From positions 81,818,397 to 81,882,396 of the forward strand of contig CM097887.1 of assembly GCA_044892525.1 (NCBI GenBank): a stretch of 64,000 nucleotides of DNA, written 5' to 3'. Shown piece by piece: positions 1 through 36,822 of the stretch. The notes beneath the pieces were generated by a model. The model searched no databases. It saw nothing but the letters and a program-made list of their open reading frames with translations, and had not been told where the DNA came from. A program made the position numbers and the translations under genes. The DNA is from Schmidtea polychroa. Taxonomy: Eukaryota. Numbering within the stretch: position 1 is the stretch's first letter; every line of letters starts with the position of its first letter.

Positions 1-66
1 GGATTTTGATTTTTTCGGTACAGAATGCCACTTTATAGATTTAAATAGAAATCTCTCAAATTGCAA

Positions 67-139
67 GCCTTCGTAGCTCAGTGGTTAGAGCACTGGTCTA
101 GTAAACCAGGGGTCGTGAGTTCAATTCTCACCGAAGGCA
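67..139 (+). tRNA. trnT: tRNA-Thr(AGT)
   Basis: Cloverleaf: GCCTTCG/CGAAGGC acceptor, GCTC/GAGC D stem, CTGGT-ctAGTaa-ACCAG anticodon arm, GTGAG-ttcaatt-CTCAC T arm, discriminator A73, no CCA. Confidence 0.97.
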
Positions 140-140
140 A

Positions 141-146
141 TTTTTT
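141..146 (+). terminator. RNA Pol III oligo-dT terminator (T6); present after every tRNA 3' end in the window
   Basis: TTTTTT starts 2 nt after the discriminator base in each unit. Confidence 0.85.
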
Positions 147-324
147 CCTAAATAAATTTTATCACATCAACATTAATCTTGTCTTGTCCGTTTTTGTTTC
201 TCGTATTAGAAAAATTCCAACAAAAAATCCTATTGATTGTCCGACTTGTGTATGGGTTGGATTTTGATTTTTTCGGTACAGAATGCCACTTTATAGATTT
301 AAATAGAAATCTCTCAAATTGCAA

Positions 325-397
325 GCCTTCGTAGCTCAGTGGTTAGAGCACTGGTCTAGTAAACCAGGGGTCGTGAGTTCAATTCTCACCGAAGGCA
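325..397 (+). tRNA. trnT: tRNA-Thr(AGT)
   Basis: Consensus copy. Confidence 0.97.
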
Positions 398-582
398 ATT
401 TTTTCCTAAATAAATTTTATCACATCAACATTAATCTTGTCTTGTCCGTTTTTGTTTCTAGTATTAGAAAAATTCCAACAAAAAATCCTATTGATTGTCC
501 GACTTGTGTATGGGTTGGATTTTGTTTTTTTCGGTACAGAATGCCACTTTAATAATTTAAATAGAAATCTCTCAAATTGCAA

Positions 583-655
583 GCCTTCGTAGCTCAGTGG
601 TTAGAGCACTGGTCTAGTAAACCAGGGGTCGTGAGTTCAATTCTCACCGAAGGCA
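583..655 (+). tRNA. trnT: tRNA-Thr(AGT)
   Basis: Consensus copy. Confidence 0.97.
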
Positions 656-840
656 ATTTTTTCCTAAATAAATTTTATCACATCAACATTAATCTTGTCT
701 TGTCCGTTTTTGTTTCTAGTATTAGAAAAATTCCAACAAAAAATCCTATTGATTGTCCGACTTGTGTATGGGTTGGATTTTGATTTTTTCGGTACAGAAT
801 GTTACTTTATAGATTTAAATAGAAATCTCTCAAATTGCAA

Positions 841-913
841 GCCTTCGTAGCTCAGTGGTTAGAGCACTGGTCTAGTAAACCAGGGGTCGTGAGTTCAATT
901 CTCACCGAAGGCA
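841..913 (+). tRNA. trnT: tRNA-Thr(AGT)
   Basis: Consensus copy. Confidence 0.97.
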
Positions 914-1098
914 ATTTTTTCCTAAATAAATTTTATCACATCAACATTAATCTTGTCTTGTCCGTTTTTGTTTCTAGTATTAGAAAAATTCCAACAAAAA
1001 ATCCTATTGATTATCCGACTTGTGTATGGGTTGGATTTTGATTTTTTCGGTACAGAATGCCACTTTATAGATTTAAATAGAAATCTCTCAAATTGCAA

Positions 1099-1171
1099 GC
1101 CTTCGTAGCTCAGTGGTTAGAGCACTGGTCTAGTAAACCAGGGGTCGTGAGTTCAATTCTCACCGAAGGCA
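1099..1171 (+). tRNA. trnT: tRNA-Thr(AGT)
   Basis: Consensus copy. Confidence 0.97.
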
Positions 1172-1356
1172 ATTTTTTCCTAAATAAATTTTATCACATC
1201 AACATTAATCTTGTCTTGTCCGTTTTTGTTTCTAGTATTAGAAAAATTCCAACAAAAAATCCTATTGATTGTCCGACTTGTGTATGGGTTGGATTTTGAT
1301 TTTTTCGGTACAGAATGTTACTTTATAGATTTAAATAGAAATCTCTCAAATTGCAA

Positions 1357-1429
1357 GCCTTCGTAGCTCAGTGGTTAGAGCACTGGTCTTGTAAACCAGG
1401 GGTCGTGAGTTCAATTCTCACCGAAGGCA
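1357..1429 (+). tRNA. trnT: tRNA-Thr variant with TGT anticodon
   Basis: Loop ctTGTaa (A34T at 1390), body otherwise consensus. Confidence 0.85.
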
Positions 1430-1614
1430 ATTTTTTCCTAAATAAATTTTATCACATCAACATTAATCTTGTCTTGTCCGTTTTTGTTTCTAGTATTAGA
1501 AAAATTCCAACAAAAAATCCTATTGATTGTCCGACTTGTGTATGGGTTGGATTTTGATTTTTTCGGTACAGAATGCCACTTTATAGATTTAAATAGAAAT
1601 CTCTCAAATTGCAA

Positions 1615-1687
1615 GCCTTCGTAGCTCAGTGGTTAGAGCACTGGTCTAGTAAACCAGGGGTCGTGAGTTCAATTCTCACCGAAGGCA
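1615..1687 (+). tRNA. trnT: tRNA-Thr(AGT)
   Basis: Consensus copy. Confidence 0.97.
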
Positions 1688-1872
1688 ATTTTTTCCTAAA
1701 TAAATTTTATCACATCAACATTAATCTTGTCTTGTCCGTTTTTGTTTCTCGTATTAGAAAAATTCCAACAAAAAATCCTATTGATTGTCCGACTTGTGTA
1801 TGGGTTGGATTTTGATTTTTTCGGTACAGAATGCCACTTTATAGATTTAAATAGAAATCTCTCAAATTGCAA

Positions 1873-1945
1873 GCCTTCGTAGCTCAGTGGTTAGAGCACT
1901 GGTCTAGTAAACCAGGGGTCGTGAGTTCAATTCTCACCGAAGGCA
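1873..1945 (+). tRNA. trnT: tRNA-Thr(AGT)
   Basis: Consensus copy. Confidence 0.97.
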
Positions 1946-2130
1946 ATTTTTTCCTAAATAAATTTTATCACATCAACATTAATCTTGTCTTGTCCGTTTT
2001 TGTTTCTAGTATTAGAAAAATTCCAACAAAAAATCCTATTGATTGTCCGACTTGTGTATGGGTTGGATTTTGTTTTTTTCGGTACAGAATGCCACTTTAA
2101 TAATTTAAATAGAAATCTCTCAAATTGCAA

Positions 2131-2203
2131 GCCTTCGTAGCTCAGTGGTTAGAGCACTGGTCTAGTAAACCAGGGGTCGTGAGTTCAATTCTCACCGAAG
2201 GAA
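2131..2203 (+). tRNA. trnT: tRNA-Thr(AGT) variant C72A (G1:A72 mismatch)
   Basis: Ends CGAAGGAA instead of CGAAGGCA. Confidence 0.75.
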
Positions 2204-2388
2204 ATTTTTTCCTAAATAAATTTTATCACATCAACATAAATCTTGTCTTGTCCGTTTTTGTTTCTAGTATTACAAAAATTCCAACAAAAAATCCTATTGA
2301 TTGTCCGACTTGTGTATGGGTTGGATTTTGATTTTTTCGGTACAGAATGCCACTTTATAGATTTACATAGAAATCTCTCAAATTGCAA

Positions 2389-2409
2389 GCCTTCGTAGCT
2401 CAGTGGTTA
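2389..2409 (+). pseudogene. 5' half (nt 1-21) of tRNA-Thr interrupted by element copy 1
   Basis: GCCTTCGTAGCTCAGTGGTTA followed directly by the element ATG. Confidence 0.95.
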
Positions 2410-4621
2410 ATGGAAAAACACACAACGATGATGCAATCGCCTACGAATGAATTACTCATCAATCTTAATCAAAAATTACCGAATTTTGGATTACTCAATT
2501 GCAAAATTGCAAAATCTTCAATCATATCTTTGTTGAAATCTCAAATTCAACAATCTCAAGCTATTTTGGATTTTATTTCAAAAGATTCGGAAGAGCCTTC
2601 AATTCTGGAACCTGTTGAATCAATTGAGGACATGCCTGAAGATTCAATGAAATTCTCTGAAGAAAAGATTCCACAACTTTCTACTATGCCTTTTTCAATT
2701 GAAGAAAGATTTCAGATTCTTGAGAAGACTATTGAATCTGTGTGTGGTAGGATTGATTTGATTTTTAATTCCGTAAATGATTATAATAAAAATATTGTTA
2801 AAGAGAATGGGAATCTAAATGAGAATACTAATACTGATTCTACTTTGGATTCTTATTCTAATAATGATGACTTTAAAATAAAAAAATTTAACAAATTATC
2901 TAAGGTTAATAATATTGTTGATTCAAAAAATACTTTAGTTTTAGGTTCAAAGTCAAATATTAAAATTAATCCTGTTAATTTGTCTAACAAATTAACTAGA
3001 TATTTATCGAAAAAAGAACGTGTGGAATTTTTGAAAAAATTTCCACGTTTTCTAAAATTAATTAAATTAAAAAATTCAAAATTTAAAGATAATTCAATTA
3101 ATTCTGAATTATCTTTAATTACTAAAAATGATTTTAACTTTATCACTGAATATGACCATTTGTATTTTCTTAATGGCCATTTTTTTGTCGTTATAAATTT
3201 AGACAAAAAATTAAAATCAAAAATTAAACCAAATAAATCTAATAATTATACTTTTATTAGTAAAATATGTAATTTAAATTTAAATACTAAAAATTTTATT
3301 TTAGTTCCAAATATAATTAAAAGGTTTTTATTTTCTCTTTCTAGCAAATTAGCTGGAACTACTTCAATTAAAAATAATAATCATAAGGGACTTATTATAA
3401 ATAAAATTCTACAAAATTTGAAAGATGAAAACCTGCTACCTGACTTTCTTCTTAGTTCAGAACTTAAGTTTGTCGACGGTGATTTTTTAATGAAAGACGT
3501 CTTTCAATCTCTAGATTGTTCTTTTACTTCTCCTAATGAAACTCGTATGGATTTGTCTAGATCACAATTAAATTTGTTATTTAAGAAATTTCCAGAGTTG
3601 AAGGAAATGTGTTTTGTCGAAAATACATCCAAAGATGCTTCCAATTTAATTAATATTAATAAATGAATTGAAATTAAATAGGAACTTCCCAAATAATATT
3701 TTTTTTGAATTTGGTAAATTTGTTAAAATTGCTAAAGATGAAAAGATTATATTTTCAACAAATGGGTCATCTGATGTACAGTTTAATCTTGGTCTATTTA
3801 ATCTTTTAGATATTATTAAAATTGACAGTGAATTGAATGATTTAGTTCTTCAACCTGAATCTTCTATGAGGCTTGTCAGTTTGGTTTTCCATTTGAATTA
3901 CTTGTTTTTAACAAAAGGTATTGAAATTTCTGGAAATATTCCTTATGATAATTATGTTATTAATTATATTCGGAATGCCTTACTTTTACATGGTGTTGTA
4001 GATCCTAAATTTTGTGAATCTCTCACACTTGACGAATTTGATAATTGGAGCGCTGACATGATAGAAAGAATTCCTTCTTCGTCATATTACTCTCAAAGTT
4101 GCAAGGAAAAGTTATTAAAATATAGGCAATGGAAACTAGAGGGGGAAGTTAATAAACTAAGAAATATTATTTCGCCTGAGACAATTAATGTTGTTAATAG
4201 ATTTTTGATTTCATTGGATGACTCTAATAAATCTATTAAGGAAGCAACTTTGAGTTTAGATGAACTAATGGATAAAATTAATACATTTAAACTAGGCGAC
4301 AATGACCCAGAAATTTTGAAATCTAAGCGGCTACTATACTTTATTTTGAGAGACAAGAAGTTGTTTCTAAGAAATAACAGTAAAATCTTCCAGTTACCTA
4401 TGACATGCAGAAAGATATGCACTCCAAAAATGTCATTATGTATTCACGAACTCTTGGACTTTCTGAAGGGGATAGAAAATCATTCATCTCCGATCTTTCC
4501 TACAATAGTTGACTCTCCATTGGTTATTGAATCACTTCCAACTGATATAGACGCTGAGACGGATACAATAAAATCTCGTACTCGAAATGGTCGAAGAAGA
4601 GCGTTATCCGATTCTAAATGA
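2410..4621 (+). pseudogene. ORF1 haplotype A (~736 aa if repaired), +1 frameshift near 3655-3667
   Basis: Track ORFs 2383-3666 and 3668-4621 align end to end with the 758-aa ORF1 of other copies; 13 nt stand where the others have 12. Confidence 0.85.
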
Positions 4622-4626
4622 AAATG

Positions 4627-4687
4627 TGTGCCTGCATCAGTGAAAATATCTGCTCCGTTCTCATATGAAACTGATGCAGAATGCACA
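4627..4687 (+). promoter_or_regulatory. Candidate stop-codon readthrough stem-loop 5 nt after the ORF1 TGA; equivalents at 15560, 23654, 31481, 39827, 48438, 57049
   Basis: TGTGC-CTGCATCAGT (4627-4641) pairs with ACTGATGCAG (4670-4679) and GCACA (4683-4687); stem invariant in all 7 copies. Confidence 0.6.
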
Positions 4688-7600
4688 AATAAACTTTCTG
4701 AAATTGACCAAACACGCTGGTTTACTGATGATGAAATTGATTATTTCCTTCTACATCATATCAATAATCCAATGTTTACCTTTATAAGATGTTTCATTGT
4801 TAGTATCTTATGTTCTGATATTGCTGAAAATGTTGTTGATCTTCCCAAAGCTATTTTTGAAGCTCAAGTAATTCTATGTCCACTCAACATTAACAACTCA
4901 CATTGGGTCTTGTTTGTTTATTGTAAATCTTCATTAACTTCTTATTTTATCGATCCGATCTTGAAGAATAGAAATAGATTAGTAAATAAGGAGAGAGCTG
5001 TTAAAATAAACAATGTATTAAACTGTACTTTCAATCTTGATTCATTAATAATTGAACACCCGTATAAAGATCTTGTTTATCAAGATAATAATTACGATTG
5101 TGGTCCTTTCATTTGCGGTTATGCGATGATTGTATCTCAAGAATGGAGCTCAATTCCTAATACGTTTGTCGAATACATTAGGAAACAATTGTTTCACTGT
5201 CAATCTATTTCTACTGTATCAGGAGGTGGCTTATCTAAAAATCATTTTCTCAATAAAATCAACTTCAAAAAGGCAATAAAACCTAAAAGCAAACCCATTA
5301 TGAATGTCAAAATTATAAACCCTAATAATGAGAAAGCTTGTGTCTCATCTCTGATAAGCAAATGGTACGAAAAATATCCAAGTATATTAGTTCTTTCTCC
5401 CGAAATAACAAATAGTTTAATCAGTCAAAATGATAATTTTATAATTGAAAATATTACATTTTTGCAATTTAGAAACGTTGATCATATAATTTGTATAATT
5501 CCTAACGATAATTGCTGGTGTCTATTGTTTTGCTCAGTCAAATATGGACATAGTTATCTTTTTGATCTTAAACCTGGTTCGATTACTGAAAGATTGATAG
5601 GAATTTGTGAAAATATTACCGATTATTTGAATAAATTTACTCTAAATAAAAAGGTTTATTTTGAAAAGAATCAAAATGCTTTTCGTTTAAAAATTTCATC
5701 TGAAGATCCGTTTGAATATGCAGTTGGGTACATTGCCTTCTTAGAAAAATATCTTTTTAATAGAATATTTGATAGAGATTATGTGATTAAAACTCTCAAA
5801 CATATGAATGTGCAGCAGGCAATTGAAATTAACAAAAATTTAAATTTAATTAATTGCAAAATTACTGATAAAATTATAACTAATTTTTTTAATAACTTGA
5901 AACATTCCTCAGATTTTATTTTACTTAATAATACAATGTGCACTGCAATTTATGAAGACTGTACTCAATATCTGAAAGATTTTTTAAATATTGAGCATTT
6001 GATAAAAGCACAGGTTATTTTTTGTATTATGGCCCCTCCTAAAGCTCAAGAAATATTGTTTGTCATTGACTATAAAACTGATGAGCATTACTTTCTCAAT
6101 CCCTCAACTTTAATTACTAATTTTAATTATTTATTTACTAGTCAAACTTTGTTGCATAAAATCAACGAAATTAGAGAATCGGCCGGTTGTTGTATAAAAT
6201 CTGGTAATATTCCGCATGATGTTCGTGGTTCTGGCCTTGTGAGTCGTGTACTCATTTGTGCTTTTATAAAAAACTATATTTCTGATTTATCTTTAGAGAA
6301 CCTCAATTTATTTGATATAGGCAGTGTAATTACTTCTTTGTTACCTCCAATAACGGAAACGATCAAGGTTTCGAAAAAAGACTTAAATGTTAAAAAAGAA
6401 ATTGGAAAACCTTCTTTGGAGCGTCGAATTGAGAAAATTAATCTCCTTTTATCAAATTTAGAAAACAGCAACGTTAATGAAATCTGTAAGATAATCATTG
6501 ACAATTCATTGCGTCAAAGATCAGATGACAAAACTATGATTCGTAGACCTTATCTGGGAAATAAACCTTCTTACGACAAACCTGACAAAAATATACTAAT
6601 ATCTGGCTTCCTATCTAATATGAAATTGACAGTGAATAAAATACTGGCTGATGAGAAAATTGATGAAAGACCTTCAATAACTGACTACATTTCTAATTTC
6701 ACTCATTCTGATCCTGTCATTAAATCTTACGATAAAGTGTTTAATTTCTGTCTGAGTTCTTTGTCAACTCTAGTTCTGAATCTAATTTCCACTGAAGATG
6801 TAAAGTTTGAAATTAAAAAAGCAGACAACACTTCTCCTGGACTTGATGATATCAAGTATAAAGATTTATCTATTTTTGATCCTGAATACAAATTATTGAC
6901 ATTTTTCTTTAACAAAATAATAGTCGATAAAAATGTTCCAGAATGTTTAAAATCTTTCAAAACAATTATGATTCCGAAGCCTGATAAAGGTGACAAGTAC
7001 ACTTTAGTTTCTTCATGGCGACCAATAGCTCTATTGTCAGTCATTTACAAAGTGTTTGCGTCAGTGTTAGCTAGTCGTTTGACTAGTTGGGTGAAGGTCA
7101 ATAATTTACTACACATTGGTCAGAAAGGAGGCTCAATCCATGACGGATGTGTTGAACATAACTCTGTTCTTTCTTCCTGCTTGGAACACTCAAAATACAG
7201 TAAAAACACTCCAATTGCTATAGCCTGGCTTGATATTAAAGACGCCTTTGGCAGTGTCCCTCATGATTACATGTGGAAAATCCTGCGTCGCGTTGGAGTC
7301 AGTGAGGAATTCACCAACATCTTGAAGCTGTTATATACCGATACAAGTTCTTTCTACACTTGTGGTCCAATTATTACACCAAACATTGCCATTAAACAGG
7401 GTGTCAAACAAGGATGCCCTATTTCAATGATTTTGTTTGCAATTGCGATAAATCCTGTTCTTGAATCTGTTAGTCAATCAAATGTGAAACCTTTCAAAAT
7501 TGCTGGATCTTCGGTTCAAGTTCTTGCATATGCTGATGACATTGCACTTGTTGCAAATAATGTTTCCGATTTACAACGCATAATTGACATTGCAGTCGAT

Positions 7601-9166
7601 ACTGCTAATGAAATAGGTTTTGAATATCGACCTGAAAAGTGTGCTTTTCTTGAACTTCCAAATATTAACTCTGAAAGTAAAATCGCAATCAATGGAATAA
7701 ATATTAAGAAACTTTTACCAAACGAATTTTACCAATATCTGGGAGTTCCAGTCGGTGAGGAAACTGACCAAAGTCCTTACGAGATTTTGAATAAAGTTAT
7801 TGTTGATGCAAATAAAATTGCAGAATCTGACTTGTTGGGATGGCAAAAATTGAAAGCCTACAAAGTCTTTCTACACTTGCGCCTAATCTTTCCATTTAGA
7901 ACGAGAGAAATAAAGATCAGTGCTCTTTCAACAACACAAGTTAATTGTACGAGTAAACTGAGAAGTATTCTAAGAAAGATCTTGAATTTGCCCAACCATT
8001 CTGAGACCAGTTATCTTTACAACTCCATTGAAAATGGAGGTGCGTCTTGTATTGATCTTCTTGATGAATATCATACACAGACGATTAGTCATTTTTTCCG
8101 ACTCTTTACCTCTAATTGCATGTTCACTCGTAATATCAATATTGACTCTTTGAAATTCGTCACTGGTCCTCGACTGGGAATCAAGGAACCATCAATGCAA
8201 GAGAGTTTCAACTGGATAAATGGAGCTGAAAATATCAAAACTCATTCTGGAAAGAAAACGAGATTCTATCGACCTCGGATAGCAATCAAGTACTTTCAAA
8301 GAACTCATGGTATTACCTTGTCTTTTGAAGTCGAGAAAAATGAGCCTGTTCTTCGATTTACAACTATCGAACGTGGTACTTGTGTGTTGACAGCTTTGAA
8401 TCGGAAAGCGATTTCTAAAATCATACATATTGCACTTTATGATGCTTATTTTTCTAAATGGAAATTAAGTAGCACGAGTGGATCTTGTGCTTATAGTTTA
8501 TCACCGAAAATCAATAAAGCGATTTACAATGGCAATCTTCGTGAAAGTCCTTGGAAATTCATACATCGTGCACGTACAAACACATTGTCTACCTTTGCTA
8601 AACCTTATCGAAAACCTGATGAAAGACTTTGTAGGCGTTGTCATATTGAAGAGGAAACACTTTGCCATGTTCTGCAAACATGCAAAATTCACCAAATCCT
8701 TGCTCTTAAAAGACATAACGAATGCTTACGACTTATTACTGAGCAACTGAAAAATCCTTTTCTTATTGTTGTTATTGACCACACTTGTTCACTTGTTGTT
8801 GACTCTAAGGAGCGAGTTGATTTAATGATAACGGATAATGATAAAAAGAAAATTTTCATGGTAGACGTCAAATGTCCTTTTGACACTCTACAGACCTTTG
8901 AAACGGTAGATAAAGGAAATTTGACAAAATACGATAATCTTCGACAGCAAATACAAGTTGCAAAGCCAAATTTTAAGGTGGAACTTTATACTTGTATCAT
9001 TGGCTCATTAGGTTCTGTTCCACCAATGACATATGATGTGCTTGAGAAGATTGGAGTACCTAATCATAAAGTTGAATCTCTTGTAAGAGAATGTGCAATG
9101 AGCAATATAATGCACTCGGCTAAATCTTGGCATTACCATGCATATGGTATCTTACCAGGCTTCTAA
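4628..9166 (+). CDS. ORF2: Ulp1/C48 protease (plus 2 degenerate repeats) - reverse transcriptase - CCHC - restriction-like endonuclease, 1512 aa from GTG; true start uncertain
   Basis: H92/D109/Q152/C158 (SHW, IDP, QDNNYDCG); RT motifs SPGLD, WRPIAL, LDIKDAF, GVKQGCP, YADD (7529), YQYLG; CRRCx8Hx4C (8630-8683); RHN, VD, DVK, KY endonuclease motifs. Confidence 0.95.
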   Translation: MPASVKISAPFSYETDAECTNKLSEIDQTRWFTDDEIDYFLLHHINNPMFTFIRCFIVSILCSDIAENVVDLPKAIFEAQVILCPLNINNSHWVLFVYCKSSLTSYFIDPILKNRNRLVNKERAVKINNVLNCTFNLDSLIIEHPYKDLVYQDNNYDCGPFICGYAMIVSQEWSSIPNTFVEYIRKQLFHCQSISTVSGGGLSKNHFLNKINFKKAIKPKSKPIMNVKIINPNNEKACVSSLISKWYEKYPSILVLSPEITNSLISQNDNFIIENITFLQFRNVDHIICIIPNDNCWCLLFCSVKYGHSYLFDLKPGSITERLIGICENITDYLNKFTLNKKVYFEKNQNAFRLKISSEDPFEYAVGYIAFLEKYLFNRIFDRDYVIKTLKHMNVQQAIEINKNLNLINCKITDKIITNFFNNLKHSSDFILLNNTMCTAIYEDCTQYLKDFLNIEHLIKAQVIFCIMAPPKAQEILFVIDYKTDEHYFLNPSTLITNFNYLFTSQTLLHKINEIRESAGCCIKSGNIPHDVRGSGLVSRVLICAFIKNYISDLSLENLNLFDIGSVITSLLPPITETIKVSKKDLNVKKEIGKPSLERRIEKINLLLSNLENSNVNEICKIIIDNSLRQRSDDKTMIRRPYLGNKPSYDKPDKNILISGFLSNMKLTVNKILADEKIDERPSITDYISNFTHSDPVIKSYDKVFNFCLSSLSTLVLNLISTEDVKFEIKKADNTSPGLDDIKYKDLSIFDPEYKLLTFFFNKIIVDKNVPECLKSFKTIMIPKPDKGDKYTLVSSWRPIALLSVIYKVFASVLASRLTSWVKVNNLLHIGQKGGSIHDGCVEHNSVLSSCLEHSKYSKNTPIAIAWLDIKDAFGSVPHDYMWKILRRVGVSEEFTNILKLLYTDTSSFYTCGPIITPNIAIKQGVKQGCPISMILFAIAINPVLESVSQSNVKPFKIAGSSVQVLAYADDIALVANNVSDLQRIIDIAVDTANEIGFEYRPEKCAFLELPNINSESKIAINGINIKKLLPNEFYQYLGVPVGEETDQSPYEILNKVIVDANKIAESDLLGWQKLKAYKVFLHLRLIFPFRTREIKISALSTTQVNCTSKLRSILRKILNLPNHSETSYLYNSIENGGASCIDLLDEYHTQTISHFFRLFTSNCMFTRNINIDSLKFVTGPRLGIKEPSMQESFNWINGAENIKTHSGKKTRFYRPRIAIKYFQRTHGITLSFEVEKNEPVLRFTTIERGTCVLTALNRKAISKIIHIALYDAYFSKWKLSSTSGSCAYSLSPKINKAIYNGNLRESPWKFIHRARTNTLSTFAKPYRKPDERLCRRCHIEEETLCHVLQTCKIHQILALKRHNECLRLITEQLKNPFLIVVIDHTCSLVVDSKERVDLMITDNDKKKIFMVDVKCPFDTLQTFETVDKGNLTKYDNLRQQIQVAKPNFKVELYTCIIGSLGSVPPMTYDVLEKIGVPNHKVESLVRECAMSNIMHSAKSWHYHAYGILPGF

Positions 9167-9675
9167 TTATTAAAATTCGATTGAAAATAATTAATTTTGT
9201 TTCTCATATTAATTAAAAAAAAAAAAAAACTGTCATCATTATTTATTTAAAGCATTATGAGGAATTGAATATCATTTTAATCTTGCCACTTATTAGTTTT
9301 GATAACCTAAACATGATAATAATCTTTTCAATTCATCATGAAGAGGTGGTCTGTTCTAATTTCAGATTCGATAATGATGAAAAAATTCAGCTGAAACAAG
9401 AAATCTTTGCAGAAACCTAGAATGGCGCTTAATTAATTTGGCTCTAAAACTTCTGCAAGTGTTATGCTAAGCCGGAAACGAATCTCCGATGAAATCCAAT
9501 ATGCCTGAGAAATTTCAAGAAACAAAGTGCTTTCGAGAAGAGTATTCTCCCAACCGATATAATTATCATAGAGATTTTGATCACCCAAGTGCCGACATTT
9601 CTTGAATGGCTGTTCCAAGTTGAACGTTCTCGACAGATAAAAATCCAAAAACTTGTTATATTAATAAAATTTTAT

Positions 9676-9717
9676 CTAGTAAACCAGGGGTCGTGAGTTC
9701 AATTCTCACCGAAGGCA
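9676..9717 (+). pseudogene. 3' half (nt 32-73) of interrupted tRNA-Thr
   Basis: CTAGTAAACCAG...GAAGGCA directly after the element 3' end. Confidence 0.95.
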
Positions 9718-9902
9718 ATTTTTTCCTAAATAAATTTTATCACATCAACATTAATCTTGTCTTGTCCGTTTTTGTTTCTAGTATTAGAAAAATTCCAACA
9801 AAAAATCCTATTGATTGTCCGACTTGTGTATGGGTTGGATTTTGTTTTTTTCGGTACAGAATGCCACTTTAATAATTTAAATAGAAATCTCTCAAATTGC
9901 AA

Positions 9903-9975
9903 GCCTTCGTAGCTCAGTGGTTAGAGCACTGGTCTAGTAAACCAGGGGTCGTGAGTTCAATTCTCACCGAAGGCA
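9903..9975 (+). tRNA. trnT: tRNA-Thr(AGT)
   Basis: Consensus copy. Confidence 0.97.
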
Positions 9976-10160
9976 ATTTTTTCCTAAATAAATTTTATCA
10001 CATCAACATTAATCTTGTCTTGTCCGTTTTTGTTTCTAGTATTAGAAAAATTCCAACAAAAAATCCTATTGATTGTCCGACTTGTGTATGGGTTGGATTT
10101 TGATTTTTTCGGTACAGAATGTTACTTTATAGATTTAAATAGAAATCTCTCAAATTGCAA

Positions 10161-10233
10161 GCCTTCGTAGCTCAGTGGTTAGAGCACTGGTCTAGTAAAC
10201 CAGGGGTCGTGATTTCAATTCTCACCGAAGGCA
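10161..10233 (+). tRNA. trnT: tRNA-Thr(AGT) variant G53T (T stem/box B damaged)
   Basis: GTGATTTCAATT instead of GTGAGTTCAATT (10213). Confidence 0.7.
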
Positions 10234-10418
10234 ATTTTTTCCTAAATAAATTTTATCACATCAACATTAATCTTGTCTTGTCCGTTTTTGTTTCTAGTAT
10301 TAGAAAAATTCCAACAAAAAATCCTATTGATTATCCGACTTGTGTATGGGTTGGATTTTGATTTTTTCGGTACAGAATGCCACTTTATAGATTTAAATAG
10401 AAATCTCTCAAATTGCAA

Positions 10419-10491
10419 GCCTTCGTAGCTCAGTGGTTAGAGCACTGGTCTAGTAAACCAGGGGTCGTGAGTTCAATTCTCACCGAAGGCA
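10419..10491 (+). tRNA. trnT: tRNA-Thr(AGT)
   Basis: Consensus copy. Confidence 0.97.
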
Positions 10492-10676
10492 ATTTTTTCC
10501 TAAATAAATTTTATCACATCAACATTAATCTTGTCTTGTCCGTTTTTGTTTCTAGTATTAGAAAAATTCCAACAAAAAATCCTATTGATTGTCCGACTTG
10601 TGTATGGGTTGGATTTTGATTTTTTCGGTACAGAATGTTACTTTATAGATTTAAATAGAAATCTCTCAAATTGCAA

Positions 10677-10749
10677 GCCTTCGTAGCTCAGTGGTTAGAG
10701 CACTGGTCTAGTAAACCAGGGGTCGTGAGTTCAATTCTCACCGAAGGCA
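10677..10749 (+). tRNA. trnT: tRNA-Thr(AGT)
   Basis: Consensus copy. Confidence 0.97.
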
Positions 10750-10934
10750 ATTTTTTCCTAAATAAATTTTATCACATCAACATTAATCTTGTCTTGTCCG
10801 TTTTTGTTTCTAGTATTAGAAAAATTCCAACAAAAAATCCTATTGATTGTCCGACTTGTGTATGGGTTGGATTTTGATTTTTTCGGTACAGAATGCCACT
10901 TTATAGATTTAAATAGAAATCTCTCAAATTGCAA

Positions 10935-11007
10935 GCCTTCGTAGCTCAGTGGTTAGAGCACTGGTCTAGTAAACCAGGGGTCGTGAGTTCAATTCTCACC
11001 GAAGGCA
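10935..11007 (+). tRNA. trnT: tRNA-Thr(AGT)
   Basis: Consensus copy. Confidence 0.97.
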
Positions 11008-11192
11008 ATTTTTTCCTAAATAAATTTTATCACATCAACATTAATCTTGTCTTGTCCGTTTTTGTTTCTCGTATTAGAAAAATTCCAACAAAAAATCCTA
11101 TTGATTGTCCGACTTGTGTATGGGTTGGATTTTGATTTTTTCGGTACAGAATGCCACTTTATAGATTTAAATAGAAATCTCTCAAATTGCAA

Positions 11193-11265
11193 GCCTTCGT
11201 AGCTCAGTGGTTAGAGCACTGGTCTAGTAAACCAGGGGTCGTGAGTTCAATTCTCACCGAAGGCA
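11193..11265 (+). tRNA. trnT: tRNA-Thr(AGT)
   Basis: Consensus copy. Confidence 0.97.
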
Positions 11266-11450
11266 ATTTTTTCCTAAATAAATTTTATCACATCAACATT
11301 AATCTTGTCTTGTCCGTTTTTGTTTCTAGTATTAGAAAAATTCCAACAAAAAATCCTATTGATTGTCCGACTTGTGTATGGGTTGGATTTTGTTTTTTTC
11401 GGTACAGAATGCCACTTTAATAATTTAAATAGAAATCTCTCAAATTGCAA

Positions 11451-11523
11451 GCCTTCGTAGCTCAGTGGTTAGAGCACTGGTCTAGTAAACCAGGGGTCGT
11501 GAGTTCAATTCTCACCGAAGGCA
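11451..11523 (+). tRNA. trnT: tRNA-Thr(AGT)
   Basis: Consensus copy. Confidence 0.97.
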
Positions 11524-11708
11524 ATTTTTTCCTAAATAAATTTTATCACATCAACATAAATCTTGTCTTGTCCGTTTTTGTTTCTAGTATTACAAAAATT
11601 CCAACAAAAAATCCTATTGATTGTCCGACTTGTGTATGGGTTGGATTTTGATTTTTTCGGTACAGAATGCCACTTTATAGATTTAAATAGAAATCTCTCA
11701 AATTGCAA

Positions 11709-11781
11709 GCCTTCGTAGCTCAGTGGTTAGAGCACTGGTCTAGTAAACCAGGGGTCGTGAGTTCAATTCTCACCGAAGGCA
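11709..11781 (+). tRNA. trnT: tRNA-Thr(AGT)
   Basis: Consensus copy. Confidence 0.97.
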
Positions 11782-11966
11782 ATTTTTTCCTAAATAAATT
11801 TTATCACATCAACATTAATCTTGTCTTGTCCGTTTTTGTTTCTAGTATTAGAAAAATTCCAACAAAAAATCCTATTGATTGTCCGACTTGTGTATGGGTT
11901 GGATTTTGTTTTTTTCGGTACAGAATGCCACTTTAATAATTTAAATAGAAATCTCTCAAATTGCAA

Positions 11967-12039
11967 GCCTTCGTAGCTCAGTGGTTAGAGCACTGGTCTA
12001 GTAAACCAGGGGTCGTGAGTTCAATTCTCACCGAAGGCA
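11967..12039 (+). tRNA. trnT: tRNA-Thr(AGT)
   Basis: Consensus copy. Confidence 0.97.
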
Positions 12040-12224
12040 ATTTTTTCCTAAATAAATTTTATCACATCAACATAAATCTTGTCTTGTCCGTTTTTGTTTC
12101 TAGTATTAGAAAAATTCCAACAAAAAATCCTATTGATTGTCCGACTTGTGTATGGGTTGGATTTTGATTTTTTCGGTACAGAATGCCACTTTATAGATTT
12201 AAATAGAAATCTCTCAAATTGCAA

Positions 12225-12297
12225 GCCTTCGTAGCTCAGTGGTTAGAGCACTGGTCTAGTAAACCAGGGGTCGTGAGTTCAATTCTCACCGAAGGCA
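12225..12297 (+). tRNA. trnT: tRNA-Thr(AGT)
   Basis: Consensus copy. Confidence 0.97.
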
Positions 12298-12482
12298 ATT
12301 TTTTCCTAAATAAATTTTATCACATCAACATTAATCTTGTCTTGTCCGTTTTTGTTTCTAGTATTAGAAAAATTCCAACAAAAAATCCTATTGATTGTCC
12401 GACTTGTGTATGGGTTGGATTTTGATTTTTTCGGTACAGAATGTTACTTTATAGATTTAAATAGAAATCTCTCAAATTGCAA

Positions 12483-12555
12483 GCCTTCGTAGCTCAGTGG
12501 TTAGAGCACTGGTCTAGTAAACCAGGGGTCGTGAGTTCAATTCTCACCGAAGGCA
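12483..12555 (+). tRNA. trnT: tRNA-Thr(AGT)
   Basis: Consensus copy. Confidence 0.97.
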
Positions 12556-12740
12556 ATTTTTTCCTAAATAAATTTTATCACATCAACATTAATCTTGTCT
12601 TGTCCGTTTTTGTTTCTCGTATTAGAAAAATTCCAACAAAAAATCCTATTGATTTTCCGACTTGTGTATGGGTTGGATTTTGATTTTTTCGGTACAGAAT
12701 GCCACTTTATAGATTTAAATAGAAATCTCTCAAATTGCAA

Positions 12741-12813
12741 GCCTTCGTAGCTCAGTGGTTAGAGCACTGGTCTAGTAAACCAGGGGTCGTGAGTTCAATT
12801 CTCACCGAAGGCA
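12741..12813 (+). tRNA. trnT: tRNA-Thr(AGT)
   Basis: Consensus copy. Confidence 0.97.
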
Positions 12814-12998
12814 ATTTTTTCCTAAATAAATTTTATCACATCAACATTAATCTTGTCTTGTCCGTTTTTGTTTCTAGTATTAGAAAAATTCCAACAAAAA
12901 ATCCTATTGATTGTCCGACTTGTGTATGGGTTGGATTTTGTTTTTTTCGGTACAGAATGCCACTTTAATAATTTAAATAGAAATCTCTCAAATTGCAA

Positions 12999-13071
12999 GC
13001 CTTCGTAGCTCAGTGGTTAGAGCACTGGTCTAGTAAACCAGGGGTCGTGAGTTCAATTCTCACCGAAGGAA
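12999..13071 (+). tRNA. trnT: tRNA-Thr(AGT) variant C72A
   Basis: CGAAGGAA end (13070). Confidence 0.75.
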
Positions 13072-13256
13072 ATTTTTTCCTAAATAAATTTTATCACATC
13101 AACATAAATCTTGTCTTGTCCGTTTTTGTTTCTAGTATTACAAAAATTCCAACAAAAAATCCTATTGATTGTCCGACTTGTGTATGGGTTGGATTTTGAT
13201 TTTTTCGGTACAGAATGCCACTTTATAGATTTACATAGAAATCTCTCAAATTGCAA

Positions 13257-13277
13257 GCCTTCGTAGCTCAGTGGTTA
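13257..13277 (+). pseudogene. 5' half of tRNA-Thr interrupted by copy 2
   Basis: nt 1-21 then ATG. Confidence 0.95.
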
Positions 13278-15554
13278 ATGGAAAAACACACAACGATGAT
13301 GCAATCGCCTACGAATGAATTACTCATCAATCTCAATCAAAAATTACCGAATTTTGGATTACTCAATTGCAAAATTGCAAAATCTTCAATCATGTCTATG
13401 TTGAAATCTCAAATTCAACAATCTCAAGCTATTTTGGACCTGATTTCAAAAGATTCTGAAGAACCTTCAATTCTGGAACCGGTTGAATCAATTAAAGAAA
13501 TGCCAGAAGATTCTTTGGAATGCTCAAAGGAAAAGATGCCACTCCTTTTAAATTTGCCTTTTCCAATTGAGGAAAGATTTCAGATACTGGAGAAGTCTAT
13601 CGAATCTATATCTGGTAGGATTGATTTGATTTCTAATTTTCTTAATGTTAATAATAATGACAATAATAAAAACTTTTTTATTAAAAATTTAAAAGTAAAT
13701 AATATTTCAAATAAGCATCTTCCTGTAATTTCTAACACTAAACCTGAAATTAATTCAAACTACTCTTCTAAATTAGTGGATAGTTCCGATAAATTGAAGG
13801 CGCCTTTTGTTGATGTTGAAATAGAGAAGTCGAAAACTCTGCATGTGGATTATAAGGGAAGTAATACTGCGTTTAAAGAGGATAATGATATAGATAGATC
13901 AACTCGTATTTTGACAAAAAAAGAACGAGCTAATTTTTTGAAGAGCTTTCCAAAGTTTATTAATTTAATCAAATTAGGTGAATCAAAATTTAAAGAGAAT
14001 TTAATTAATTATGAACTTAATTTAATAACTAAATCAAAATTAAACTTTAATATTAATAATTTTGAAAAGTTATATTTTGAAAATGGAAAGTTTTTTATTT
14101 CTATTTATAACAAAAATGGAATGAGACCTGAGGTTAGGAATATGAAAGCTTTAATAAAACCTAAAATTATCTCTAGCAGTGGCCGAATTTTAAATAAAAC
14201 TTTTATTTCAAGTTTAATTCGTACTGACAACAATTATAGTAAAATCTCTGCTTCTTTAGCAATTAAGAAATTTTTATTTGCATTTTCTGACAAATTAGCT
14301 GCAACTGTTTCCATTAAAAATATTAATCAAAAGGGCTCTGTCATTAATAAAGAATTAGATTTACTAAAAAAAGAAAATAAACTTCCACAATTTTTAATAA
14401 ATTCAGATATTAAATATCTAAATGGGGAATTTGTAATAAATGACATATTCAGTCCTTCAGAATCTCAAAATGAAGTTGTGAATCGCAGAGAGTTGTCTAG
14501 ATCACAATTAAATCAATTATTTAAAAGTCATCCAGAGCTGAAAGAGATGTGTTTTGTTGAAAACTCATCTAAATGTGCATCAAAATTGACTAATTTGTTA
14601 CATAATTTAAAATTAAATAATAACTTTCTTGAGAATATTGAGTTTGATTCAGGAAGGTTTTTCAAATCTAAAGAAACTGTAAATAATGAATCAATTGGTG
14701 CGTCTGACATCATGTTTAACTTGGGACTGCTCAACTTCATTGACATTTCTAAGAAAAATGATGATTTTAAGGAACTTCTACTTTCAACTTCTTCTCCTCA
14801 AAAGCTGGTTGATTTGATCTTTACGATAAATTATAAAATCTTGACGAAGGACATCAACTACTTGAACAATATTACCTATGGAAATTATGTCATGAATTAT
14901 TTTATAAATATTTTACTTTTACACTCTGTAGCTGATCTTGAAACTTGTGAATCTCTCACAATTGACGACTTTGATTATTGGAGCGCTGACATGATAGAAA
15001 AAATTCCTTCTTCGTCATATTACTCTCAAAGTTGCAAGGAAAAGTTACTTAAATATAGGCAGTGGAAACTAGAGGGGGAAGTTGATAAACTAAGAAATAT
15101 TATTTCGCCTGAGACAATTAATGTTGTTAATAAATTTTTGATTTCATCGGATGACTCTAATAAATCTATTAAGGAAGCAACTTTGAGTTTAGATGAACAA
15201 ATGGACAAAATTAATACATTTAAACTAGGCGACAATGACCCAGACATTTTGAAATCTAAGCGGTTACTATACTTTATTTTGAGAGACAAGAAGTTGTTTC
15301 TAAGAAATAACAGCAAAATCTTCCAATTACCTATGACATGCAAAAAAATATGCACTCCAAAAATGTCATTATGTATTCATGAACTCTTGGACTTTCTTAA
15401 GGGGATAGAAAATCATTCATCTCCGATCTTTCCTACAATAGTTGACTCTCCATTGGTTATTGAATCACTTCCAACTGATATAGACGCTGAGACGGATACA
15501 ATAAAATCTCGTACTCGAAATGGTCGAAGAAGAGCGTTATCCGATTCTAAATGA
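13278..15554 (+). CDS. ORF1 haplotype B, 758 aa, unknown function
   Basis: Long ORF from the junction ATG (MEKHTT) to TGA; coiled-coil-like N-terminal segment, basic C-terminus (KSRTRNGRRR). Confidence 0.9.
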   Translation: MEKHTTMMQSPTNELLINLNQKLPNFGLLNCKIAKSSIMSMLKSQIQQSQAILDLISKDSEEPSILEPVESIKEMPEDSLECSKEKMPLLLNLPFPIEERFQILEKSIESISGRIDLISNFLNVNNNDNNKNFFIKNLKVNNISNKHLPVISNTKPEINSNYSSKLVDSSDKLKAPFVDVEIEKSKTLHVDYKGSNTAFKEDNDIDRSTRILTKKERANFLKSFPKFINLIKLGESKFKENLINYELNLITKSKLNFNINNFEKLYFENGKFFISIYNKNGMRPEVRNMKALIKPKIISSSGRILNKTFISSLIRTDNNYSKISASLAIKKFLFAFSDKLAATVSIKNINQKGSVINKELDLLKKENKLPQFLINSDIKYLNGEFVINDIFSPSESQNEVVNRRELSRSQLNQLFKSHPELKEMCFVENSSKCASKLTNLLHNLKLNNNFLENIEFDSGRFFKSKETVNNESIGASDIMFNLGLLNFIDISKKNDDFKELLLSTSSPQKLVDLIFTINYKILTKDINYLNNITYGNYVMNYFINILLLHSVADLETCESLTIDDFDYWSADMIEKIPSSSYYSQSCKEKLLKYRQWKLEGEVDKLRNIISPETINVVNKFLISSDDSNKSIKEATLSLDEQMDKINTFKLGDNDPDILKSKRLLYFILRDKKLFLRNNSKIFQLPMTCKKICTPKMSLCIHELLDFLKGIENHSSPIFPTIVDSPLVIESLPTDIDAETDTIKSRTRNGRRRALSDSK

Positions 15555-15560
15555 AAATGT

Positions 15561-18500
15561 GTGCCTGCATCAGTGAAAATATCTGCTCCGTTCTCATATG
15601 AAACTGATGCAGAATGCACAAATAAACTTTCTGAAATTGACCGAACACGCTGGTTTACTGATGATGAAATTGATTATTTCCTTCTACATCATATCAATAA
15701 TCCAATGTTTACCTTTATAAGATGTTTCATTGTTAGTATCTTATGTTCTGATATTGCTGAAAATGTTGTTGATCTTCCCAAAGCTATTTTTGAAGCTCAA
15801 GTAATTCTATGTCCACTCAACATTAACAACTCACATTGGGTCTTGTTTGTTTATTGTAAATCTTCATTAACTTCTTATTTTATCGATCCGATCTTGAAGA
15901 ATAGAAATAGATTAGTAAATAAGGAGAGAGCTGTTAAAATAAACAATGTATTAAATTGTACTTTCAATCTTGATTCATTAATAATTGAACACCCGTATAA
16001 AGATCTTGTTTATCAAGATAATAATTACGATTGTGGTCCTTTCATTTGCGGTTATGCGATGATTGTATCGCAAGAATGGAGCTCAATTCCTAATACGTTT
16101 GTCGAATACATTAGGAAACAATTGTTTCACTGTCAATCTATTTCTACTGTATCAGGAGGTGGCTTATCTAAAAATCATTTTCTCAATAAAATCAACTTCA
16201 AAAAGGCAATAAAACCTAAAAGCAAACCCATTATGAATGTCAAAATTATAAACCCTAATAATGAGAAAGCTTGTGTCTCATCTCTGATAAGCAAATGGTA
16301 CGAAAAATATCCAAGTATATTAGTTCTTTCTCCCGAAATAACAAATAGTTTAATCAGTCAAAATGATAATTTTATAATTGAAAATATTACATTTTTGCAA
16401 TTTAGAAACGTTGATCATATAATTTGTATAATTCCTAACGATAATTGCTGGTGTCTATTGTTTTGCTCAGTCAAATATGGACATAGTTATCTTTTTGATC
16501 TTAAACCTGGTTCGATTACTGAAAGATTGATAGGAATTTGTGAAAATATTACCGATTATTTGAATAAATTTACTCTAAATAAAAAGGTTTATTTTGAAAA
16601 GAATCAAAATGCTTTTCGTTTAAAAATTTCATCTGAAGATCCGTTTGAATATGCAGTTGGGTACATTGCCTTCTTAGAAAAATATCTTTTTAATAGAATA
16701 TTTGATAGAGATTATGTGATTAAAACTCTCAAACATATGAATGTGCAGCAGGCAATTGAAATTAACAAAAATTTAAATTTAATTAATTGCAAAATTACTG
16801 ATAAAATTATAACTAATTTTTTTAATAACTTGAAACATTCCTCAGATTTTATTTTACTTAATAATACAATGTGCACTGCAATTTATGAAGACTGTACTCA
16901 ATATCTGAAAGATTTTTTAAATATTGAGCATTTGATAAAAGCACAGGTTATTTTTTGTATTATGGCCCCTCCTAAAGCTCAAGAAATATTGTTTGTCATT
17001 GACTATAAAACTGATGAGCATTACTTTCTCAATCCCTCAACTTTAATTACTAATTTTAATTATTTATTTACTAGTCAAACTTTGTTGCATAAAATCAACG
17101 AAATTAGAGAATCGGCCGGTTGTTGTATAAAATCTGGTAATATTCCGCATGATGTTCGTGGTTCTGGCCTTGTGAGTCGTGTACTCATTTGTGCTTTTAT
17201 AAAAAACTATATTTCTGATTTATCTTTAGAGAACCTCAATTTATTTGATATAGGCAGTGTAATTACTTCTTTGTTACCTCCAATAACGGAAACGATCAAG
17301 GTTTCGAAAAAAGACTTAAATGTAAAAAAAGAAATTGAAAAACCTTCTTTGGAGCGTCGAATTGAGAAAATTAATCTCCTTTTATCAAATTTAGAAAACA
17401 GCAACGTTAATGAAATCTGTAAGATAATCATTGACAATTCATTGCGTCAAAGATCAGATGACAAAACTATGATTCGTAGACCTTATCTGGGAAATAAACC
17501 TTCTTACGACAAACCTGACAAAAATATACTAATATCTGGCTTCCTATCTAATATGAAATTGACAGTGAATAAAATACTGGCTGATGAGAAAATTGATGAA
17601 AGACCTTCAATAACTGACTACATTTCTAATTTCACTCATTCTGATCCTGTCATTAAATCTTACGATAAAGTGTTTAATTTCTGTCTGAGTTCTTTGTCAA
17701 CTCTAGTTCTGAATCTAATTTCCACTGAAGATGTAAAGTTTGAAATTAAAAAAGCAGACAACACTTCTCCTGGACTTGATGATATCAAGTATAAAGATTT
17801 ATCTATTTTTGATCCTGAATACAAATTATTGACATTTTTCTTTAACAAAATAATAGTCGATAAAAATGTTCCAGAATGTTTAAAATCTTTCAAAACAATT
17901 ATGATTCCGAAGCCTGATAAAGGTGACAAGTACACTTTAGTTTCTTCATGGCGACCAATAGCTCTATTGTCAGTCATTTACAAAGTGTTTGCGTCAGTGT
18001 TAGCTAGTCGTTTGACCAGTTGGGTGAAGGTCAATAATTTACTACACATTGGTCAGAAAGGAGGCTCAATCCACGACGGATGTGTTGAACATAACTCTGT
18101 TCTTTCTTCCTGCTTGGAACACTCAAAATACAGTAAAAACACTCCAATTGCTATAGCCTGGCTTGATATTAAAGACGCCTTTGGCAGTGTCCCTCGTGAT
18201 TACATGTGGAAAATCCTGCGTCGCGTTGGAGTCAGTGAGGAATTCACCAACATCTTGAAGCTGTTATATACCGATACAAGTTCTTTCTACACTTGTGGTC
18301 CAATTATTACACCAAACATTGCCATTAAACAGGGTGTCAAACAAGGATGCCCTATTTCAATGATTTTGTTTGCAATTGCGATAAATCCTGTTCTTGAATC
18401 TGTTAGTCAATCAAATGTGAAACCTTTCAAAATTGCTGGATCTTCGGTTCAAGTTCTTGCATATGCTGATGACATTGCACTTGTTGCAAATAATGTTTCC

Positions 18501-20099: not shown

Positions 20100-20834
20100 T
20101 TATTAAAATTCGATTGAAAATAATTAATTTTGTTTCTCATATTAATTAAAAAAAAAAAAAACTGTCATCATTATTTATTTAAAGCATTATGAGGAATTGA
20201 ATATCATTTTAATCTTGCCACTTATTAGTTTTGATAACCTAAACATGATAATAATCTTTTCAATTCATCATGAAGAGGTGGTCTGTTCTAATTTCAGATT
20301 CGATAATGATGAAAAAATTCAGCTGAAACAAGAAATCTTTGCAGAAACCTAGAATGGCGCTTAATTAATTTGGCTCTAAAACTTCTGCAAGTGTTAAGCT
20401 AAGCCGGAAACGAATCTCCGATGAAATCCAATATGCCTGAGAAATTTCAAGAAACAAAGTGCTTTCGAGACGAGTATTCTCCCAACCGATATAATTATCA
20501 TAGAGATTTTGATCACCCAAGTGCCGACATTTCTTGAATGGCTGTTCCAAGTTGAACGTTCTCAACAGATAAAAATCCAAAAACTTGTTATATTAATAAA
20601 ATTTTATCTAGTAAACCAGGGGTCGTGAGTTCAATTCTCACCGAAGGCAATTTTTTCCTAAATAAATTTTATCACATCAACATTAATCTTGTCTTGTCCG
20701 TTTTTGTTTCTAGTATTAGAAAAATTCCAACAAAAAATCCTATTGATTGTCCGACTTGTGTATGGGTTGGATTTTGATTTTTTCGGTACAGAATGCCACT
20801 TTATAGATTTAAATAGAAATCTCTCAAATTGCAA

Positions 20835-20907
20835 GCCTTCGTAGCTCAGTGGTTAGAGCACTGGTCTAGTAAACCAGGGGTCGTGAGTTCAATTCTCACC
20901 GAAGGCA
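20835..20907 (+). tRNA. trnT: tRNA-Thr(AGT)
   Basis: Consensus copy. Confidence 0.97.
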
Positions 20908-21092
20908 ATTTTTTCCTAAATAAATTTTATCACATCAACATTAATCTTGTCTTGTCCGTTTTTGTTTCTAGTATTAGAAAAATTCCAACAAAAAATCCTA
21001 TTGATTGTCCGACTTGTGTATGGGTTGGATTTTGCTTTTTTCGGTACAGAATGCCACTTTATAGATTTAAATAGAAATCTCTCAAATTGCAA

Positions 21093-21165
21093 GCCTTCGT
21101 AGCTCAGTGGTTAGAGCACTGGTCTAGTAAACCAGGGGTCGTGAGTTCAATTCTCACCGAAGGCA
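21093..21165 (+). tRNA. trnT: tRNA-Thr(AGT)
   Basis: Consensus copy. Confidence 0.97.
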
Positions 21166-21371
21166 ATTTTTTCCTAAATAAATTTTATCACATCAACATT
21201 AATCTTGTCTTGTCCGTTTTTGTTTCTAGTATTACAAAAATTCCAACAAAAAATCCTATTGATTGTCCGACTTGTGTATGGGTTGGATTTTGATTTTTTC
21301 GGTACAGAATGCCACTTTATAGATTTATATAGAAATCTCTCAAATTGCAAGCCTTCGTAGCTCAGTGGTTA

Positions 21372-23648: not shown

Positions 23649-23654
23649 AGATGT

Positions 23655-28193: not shown

Positions 28194-28692
28194 TTATTAA
28201 AGTTCGATTAAAAATAATTAATTTTGTTTCTCATATTAATTAAAAACTGTCATCATTATTTATTTAAAGCATTATGAGGAATCGAATATCATTTTGATCT
28301 TGCCACTTATTAGTTTTGATAGTCTAAACATGATAATAATCTTTTCAATTCATCATGGAGAGGTGGTCCATTCTAATTTCAGATTCAACAATGATGAACA
28401 AATTCAGCTGAAACGAGAAAAGTTTGCAGAAACCTAGAATAGAGCTTAATTAATTTGGCTCTAAAATTTCTGCAAGTGTTAAGCTAAGCCGGAAACGAAT
28501 CTCCGATGAAATCCAATATGCCTGAGAAATTTCAAGAAACAAAGTGCTTTCGAGATGAGTATTCTCCCAACCGATATATTTATCACAGAGATTTTGATCA
28601 CCCAAGTGCCGACATTTCCTGAATGGCTGTTCCAAGTTGAACGTTCTCGACAGATAAAAATCCAAAAACTTGTTATATTAATAAAATTTTAT

Positions 28693-31475: not shown

Positions 31476-31481
31476 AGATGT

Positions 31482-36749: not shown

Positions 36750-36822
36750 GCCTTCGTAGCTCAGTGGTTAGAGCACTGGTCTAGTAAACCAGGGGTCGTG
36801 AGTTCAATTCTCACCGAAGGCA
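36750..36822 (+). tRNA. trnT: tRNA-Thr(AGT)
   Basis: Consensus copy. Confidence 0.97.

Follow-up and report, generated by a model that had tools for sequence, protein, structure and literature searches.

The 5′ junction and the formation of the second strand are the least settled step of retrotransposition by elements without long terminal repeats (non-LTR elements). R1 is an element with an apurinic/apyrimidinic endonuclease (APE) that resides in 28S rDNA. Its melanogaster-type R1A lineage is described as leaving an invariant, precise 9-bp target deletion, together with rearrangements at the insertion site, and as taking 7–28 bp of upstream target to off-target sites; the account given for the junction is that the RNA carries upstream target sequence, which anneals to the target (PMC2718515, Stage and Eickbush 2009). 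In R2, which uses a restriction-like endonuclease (RLE) and target-primed reverse transcription, an RNA that carries as much as 36 nt of upstream target is reported to give precise annealed 5′ junctions, with 11 bp sufficing (PMC11331408). The present analysis concerns a junction of this kind in Schmidtea polychroa, in a 64,000-nucleotide stretch of DNA (hereafter the window; assembly GCA_044892525.1, contig CM097887.1, positions 81,818,397 to 81,882,396) in which a tandem array of 258-bp tRNA-Thr(AGT) units is broken up by eight copies, E1 to E8, of a 7.3-kb element. As near-identical isoacceptor arrays mark both donor and recipient, the role of a host-derived RNA head becomes readable from the genome.

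The element is a site-specific RLE non-LTR retrotransposon, most likely of the R5/LIN lineage (NeSL clade) and near R5-2_SM. Both the lineage and the mechanism are known; the feature discussed here adds a new member to the one and a new case to the other, and the precedents of R1A and R2 limit the surprise. Like R1A, the element shows the 9-nt gap and rearranged insertion sites and carries upstream target to off-target and foreign sites; it differs in that isoacceptor genes supply natural sequence markers, and in that its two truncated copies have upstream deletions where truncated R1A copies are said to have target-site duplications (TSDs; PMC2718515). R2, as described in PMC11331408, is co-transcribed by RNA polymerase (Pol) I, trimmed by a ribozyme like that of hepatitis delta virus (HDV) and equipped with one open reading frame (ORF), whereas the present element has two in-frame ORFs, a protease, a Pol III-gene target – tRNA-Thr arrays as its multicopy RNA gene, not 28S rDNA – and no Rfam match. 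The R5/LIN lineage is reported to include LIN families targeting tRNA-Arg and tRNA-Glu (PMC4640811). According to the same source, LIN15_SM and LIN25_SM resemble the element in their AT-rich 3′ ends without poly(A) and in using a single position across a number of tRNA-Arg and tRNA-Glu genes, and LIN9_SM 5′ boundaries carry a diverged copy of the upstream target, as the element carries its target head. Here, by contrast, the target is tRNA-Thr (AGT, TGT and CGT) at nt 30/31, and the 5′ boundary is a deletion, whereas the single LIN15_SM boundary shown in that paper is a duplication. NeSL-1_TV also has a tRNA target (tRNA-Pro) and a fixed 5′ boundary with a 4-nt deletion, as read from S6 Fig of PMC4640811, and without a TSD, yet it is a Trichomonas element with another tRNA and another site. 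No description of a tRNA-Thr-specific element, of its 5′ junction or promoter, or of readthrough in this lineage was found in the literature searched, with Repbase reports and subscription papers, which may bear on novelty, lying outside that search. What is new here are the natural donor markers, the layered capture of host spacer and a promoter candidate; moreover, RLE enzymes that retarget among tRNA and 5S genes at fixed positions provide comparative material for R2-type genome-writing tools.

The array and its element copies occupy positions 1..62304 on the forward strand, with 36 intact tRNA genes called, and the window holds eight 5′ and seven 3′ element junctions, as an earlier sequence-only reading of this DNA had counted. 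That reading was also right about the uniformity of the 3′ side: all seven 3′ junctions run from AATAAAATTTTA directly into TCTAGT, with neither a poly(A) tail nor a TSD. Genome-wide, 23 of the 24 3′ ends matching at ≥96% abut tRNA-Thr at nt 31, one of them with an extra A, the remaining one being off-target. Because the off-target copy ends in TTTTA followed by ACC, and one copy on another contig (C2) in TTTTA, a single A and then TCT, the T at the junction is best assigned to the tRNA. From these ends we infer a bottom-strand nick by the endonuclease at nt 30/31, much as had been proposed. Insertions were found in four different tRNA-Thr genes on two chromosomes and at one off-target site.

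On the 5′ side, an ATG immediately follows the tRNA head at all eight window junctions, and GAGCACTGG is missing at every one of them. In E1, the tRNA-Thr(AGT) head (nt 1–21) lies at 2389..2409 and the tail (nt 31–73 including box B, on the junction reading given above) at 9675..9717, while the intact B-type copy E2 (13257..20649) has both an AGT head and an AGT tail; box A (tRNA nt 8–18) is retained upstream of the element, as had been noted. The claim that all eight junctions comprise nt 1–21 of the tRNA holds for six and fails for E4 and E8. In the E4 head (29178..29198, with the element starting at 29199), nt 16 of the AGT gene (29193) is an A, as in the CGT gene (a short conversion tract), whereas E8 (62305) is preceded by a leader and head from a different gene: at 62273..62304, the leader and nt 1–19 of tRNA-Thr(CGT) from the C2 array are joined to AGT spacer at TCAAAT (−11 to −6). 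Since the window copies are only 0.1–1.3% apart, mosaic and associated with the same rare upstream-spacer variants – E1 departing only in its 5′ 1.7 kb – the eight junctions are not eight independent events.

How much target is lost at this join is less clear-cut than the precise 9-nt deletion originally read from it. Although nt 22–30 are missing at all eight junctions, the size is ambiguous and 9–13 target nt were possibly lost, because the junction letters (G)TTA, within nt 18–21 (GTTA) of the head, also match a captured spacer fragment (microhomology). This fragment (2407..2422) is identical over 16 nt to spacer in the tRNA-Thr array of C2, at a point 168 nt upstream from a TGT gene, and spans tRNA nt 19 to element nt 13; the preceding G matches too, and the maximum in 2000 shuffles was 13. 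It holds the first ATG, so that the zero-length element 5′ UTR (untranslated region) proposed earlier is not supported; the ATG common to sister families is at element nt 19. For the 72-nt CGT gene, the junction holds an extra T relative to the gene itself. Losses at other junction types amount to 25, 28 or hundreds of nt: the beta-type 5′ end joins at tRNA nt 2, losing 28 nt, and one truncated copy joins at nt 5. These differing losses rule out deducing a second nick 9–10 nt upstream directly from the junction, as had been suggested, and on the sequence the 9-nt gap thus looks like one historical, inherited join and not a mapped second nick, while a true top-strand nick near nt 20 is possible.

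The heads themselves provide natural markers. A pattern search of the genome finds exactly 20 5′ junctions of the window type, all of which were inspected. Among the 14 in AGT arrays, ten have pure AGT heads, one has only the CGT letter A16 and three have a whole CGT head (A16 is present in 4/14 element heads vs 0/140 other AGT units); all three CGT heads cross over at the common TCAAAT. The C2 array carries three tRNA-Thr genes, two TGT and one CGT, and its six element copies all have a CGT head, with a TGT-gene tail in five; no TGT head occurs among the 20 junctions. Such CGT-head/TGT-tail insertions imply a loss of 430–670 nt or a duplication of 230–470 nt, not a loss of 9 nt. The off-target copy bears AGT leader (−18 to +2) inside non-tRNA DNA, and no TSD longer than 8 nt was found within 400 nt of it, the longest repeat being 8 nt and far from the ends. 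This copy (G000:C2:119388789-119411175) is itself interrupted by a 15-kb insertion with GC-rich inverted ends.

Foreign CGT heads and head/tail mismatches together indicate that the head moves with the element. It is likely carried on the element RNA, the cDNA annealing upstream of the nick – the second of two alternatives offered by the sequence-only reading, now backed by natural markers. Sister families behave alike: donor-array spacer is found in foreign arrays, with 37, 68, 69, 37 and 24 nt in common upstream of the motif discussed below in five pairs, and although a sixth pair scored 9 owing to motif-adjacent substitutions, by eye about 36 nt of Met-array spacer are carried. A held-out copy in an Arg array has a spacer piece of about 50 nt duplicated at its junction. 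Both of the 5′-truncated, head-less copies seen join imprecisely, one at tRNA nt 5 with 4 unassigned nt and one through a T-run microhomology that lies downstream of the preceding tRNA. In non-array DNA, at G000:C1:256713352 and 256687977 (L021, L022), there are orphan 5′ fragments in which the captured spacer piece is doubled.

The same data can be set against the idea that a fixed top-strand nick 9–10 nt upstream makes the deletion each time, foreign heads arising by later gene conversion between residents. Ten of the 14 AGT-array junctions are identical, mosaics among copies exist, R1A is modelled with a nick at −9 (PMC2718515), and in the sister family F2 the 3′ junction falls at nt 20/21, which is 10 nt further upstream, so that this position is cleavable by a related enzyme. 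Even so, we regard this account as unlikely: losses of 25 and 28 nt, instead of 9, are seen in the head-less truncated copies and at the beta-type 5′ end, a CGT head is combined with a TGT tail in five of six C2 copies with the reciprocal product absent, and the array leader on the off-target copy could come from no nick.

Linkage also extends into the array upstream of the head. Rare variants upstream of E1 (t72A, −151A, −116C and −23C; 2202..2366) are linked to element-bearing units, −151A preceding 10/14 elements vs 3/140 other AGT units and −116C 11/14 vs 2/140, which may have come about by co-transfer over a long stretch, by the copying of a resident element or by duplication of blocks. 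In the C2 array, the variant −63A occurs in two related copies and in 0/35 other spacers; −11 and −63 of the carried flank look donor-derived, whereas −107 tracks the local array, and a long common 5′ transduction there was accordingly rejected beyond about −100. Recurrent upstream haplotype blocks and copies 0.1–1.3% apart are what one would expect if all junction identity came from array turnover, one or two old insertions having been multiplied by unequal crossing-over and the precision being uninformative. Turnover probably contributes to copy number, but as a full explanation it strikes us as very improbable: insertions lie in four tRNA-Thr genes on two chromosomes and at an off-target site, linkage is far stronger upstream than downstream, and turnover cannot put CGT or Asn/Leu-array pieces of 20–70 nt into unrelated arrays.

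Probably, then, the 5′ junction is copied from the donor copy, on an RNA that begins in host array DNA tens of nt upstream of the element; the earlier proposal that the transcript starts in the host array agrees with this, the RNA appearing to begin there. What is observed – the fixed 3′ end, foreign heads, head/tail mismatches and captured spacer – permits a conjectural sequence of four steps. The endonuclease would nick the bottom strand at nt 30/31, priming reverse transcription; the cDNA would terminate in a host-derived head, comprising tRNA nt 1–19, the leader and sometimes at least 60 nt of spacer; this head would anneal to the best upstream homology, be it the same gene, another isoacceptor gene or the 5′ end of a resident element, with target DNA between the annealing site and the nick being lost and the donor join reproduced exactly; and where homology is absent, the head would be joined by microhomology and become a new permanent 5′ layer of the element. 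A single event of such layering may account for both the ATG found at nt 1 and the gap of 9 nt.

Several points weigh against copying from the donor RNA. The start of the RNA is deduced, assembled contigs carrying no start information. The letters at element nt 24 and 57 are mosaic on different bodies, so that DNA-level conversion also occurs and can swap heads, and one or two events may account for the three CGT heads of the AGT array. Upstream linkage to −151 and t72 outruns heads of 20–70 nt and may instead reflect block duplication, with −123C somewhat enriched downstream too (4/16). For the same pattern in R1A, the authors invoke a real top-strand nick at −9 (PMC2718515). Finally, definition of the candidate promoter motif was post hoc, and 3/3 held-out families lack it.

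The crossovers of all three CGT heads in TCAAAT, at −11 to −6, and the intact box A invite the idea that the RNA is a Pol III transcript initiated where the interrupted tRNA gene itself starts (about −9), with box A acting together with a box B that is looped in or used from downstream. Pre-tRNA starts usually fall in this region. However, TCAAAT is also merely the last common homology, the carried flank extends to −18 and probably to −63, and box A is missing in sister 5′ ends (these lie at about −8 in F2, at +2 in beta and about 60 nt upstream in the Leu and Asn families). The sense strand of E2, moreover, contains 65 runs of T≥4 and 18 of T≥5, the first at element nt 75, and these many runs, which had rightly been taken to argue against Pol III, together with the sister 5′ ends lacking box A leave Pol III a very remote candidate. 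The RNA copied at the junction would most likely be made by Pol II instead, either driven by a cis-element within the element's first 50 nt, for which TGAT/CGCAAT is the candidate, or arising as read-through of the array.

The earlier contention that the join leaves no room for an element promoter does not follow, because internal promoters can overlap an element's first bases, and a candidate motif is present near the 5′ boundary, though it failed a held-out test. At 2428..2437, the sister-conserved ATG overlaps TGATGCAAT (TGACGCAAT in other copies), a candidate CEBP/ATF-type cis-element. Over the first 150 nt of eight 5′ ends from seven families, the pattern T(G/T)A(C/T)G(C/T)AA gives 19 occurrences (0.42 expected from element bodies; shuffle maximum 5), a count to be read with the motif having been defined on the same related sequences as were scored; both orientations and different frames are represented, and in seven families the motif lies no more than 50 nt from the 5′ boundary. 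The two variants carried by the present family, TGATGCAA and TGACGCAA, are the sites reported as preferred by CEBPB–ATF4 (PMC3668366). A held-out set of 16 loci comprised four full-length loci (three new families) and one of a known family, 11 truncated, decayed or unrelated ones being dropped. The strict motif is present near the 5′ end of the known-family locus and in none of the three held-out full-length families (four loci), so that its universality is rejected; two of the held-out families have another short motif, ATCAGTAGC, in common. We therefore hold an internal Pol II cis-element only tentatively, at somewhat less than even chances, with array read-through as the alternative.

As for an HDV-like ribozyme, there was no Rfam match at E≤1 and none in the minimum free energy structure (which cannot show pseudoknots), nor was a conserved 5′ fold found. 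A more far-reaching and, in our view, doubtful proposal is that a CEBP/ATF4-type element in the first 50 nt replaces both ribozyme and 5′ UTR and fires Pol II from upstream host DNA, the host head serving as a self-renewing, layered homology arm and mobilisation being tied to the amino-acid/tRNA stress response; if this were true, tRNA loss would itself trigger the stress response driving mobilisation.

The sister families target Leu/Trp, Asn/Met/Cys/Arg, Asp, 5S and Ala genes. More broadly, related families sit in arrays of genes for tRNA-Leu, Trp, Asp, Gly, Met, Asn, Cys, Arg, Ala, Ser and Phe, and two families sit in 5S rDNA; every family keeps a fixed 3′ position of its own. F2 lies in the same C2 array, at G000:C2 about 175388560-175396010 (L039, L040), with 57% amino-acid identity to the element; it joins at about −8 on the 5′ side, and its 3′ end is at nt 20/21, 10 nt upstream of the nt 30/31 junction. 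Part of ORF1 and the protease region are 88–93% identical in DNA between F2 and A-type copies – a domain swap.

Turning to the body of the element, the ORF1 region of the A-type copy E1 (2410..4621) has a broken frame (418 aa + 251 aa), whereas ORF1 is intact at 758 aa in the B-type copies E2–E7; it matches no family in a Pfam scan. The E1 A-type 5′ region is 99.35% identical over its full length to a copy on contig C2. The ORF2 frame (4622..9166; 1514 aa, with domains read on E2) encodes an N-terminal Ulp1/C48-like protease (Peptidase_C48, E 1.9e-9), a reverse transcriptase (RVT_1, E 3.6e-28), a CCHC knuckle at aa 1337 and an RLE-type R-D...D-K motif at aa 1398, the protease and reverse transcriptase from the Pfam scan and the last two by pattern match; the same scan found no APE endonuclease family. 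The two in-frame ORFs are thus unlike the single ORF of R2, with its N-terminal zinc fingers/Myb. The reverse transcriptase is near that of R5-2_SM, with 55 of the first 78 aligned residues identical by hand count against the sequence in the supplement of PMC7650587, and, compared by eye, looks closer to it than to R5 or R5-1_SM. The 3′ UTR of E1 (9167..9674) ends in CTTGTTATATTAATAAAATTTTA, without poly(A), like the LIN15/24/25_SM 3′ ends.

Between ORF1 and ORF2 there is a single in-frame TGA followed by a conserved hairpin, a predicted readthrough signal at 4619..4687 in E1 and 15552-15620 in E2. The hairpin begins 6–9 nt 3′ of the TGA and is kept in 10/10 sequences folded (z −2.5 to −4.6), the protease region begins upstream of the first ATG of ORF2, and a 16-nt pattern for the TGA context has 608 genome matches, some of them unrelated, vs 0 for a control; UGA readthrough would probably join the two ORFs.

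Some minor observations concern the arrays and possible transcripts. Anticodon point variants occur in the AGT array (TGT at window position 1357 and twice in L035; AGA at 53714), and there are C2 CGT genes with a 14-nt deletion in the anticodon arm. A 1.9-kb satellite at the array edge (G000:C3:81905600-81929000; L033, L034) is composed of the 5′ end of a decayed beta-type element together with 3′ ends of elements and tails of tRNA-Thr. Contigs of run X1, whose RNA source is only presumed, skip pieces of 41–69 nt with CT..AC ends at five places within window positions 14871-18652; these gaps, each seen in one contig of one run, read as GT-AG introns on the minus strand and likely mark antisense transcripts that were spliced, made either from the element itself or from one of its close relatives.

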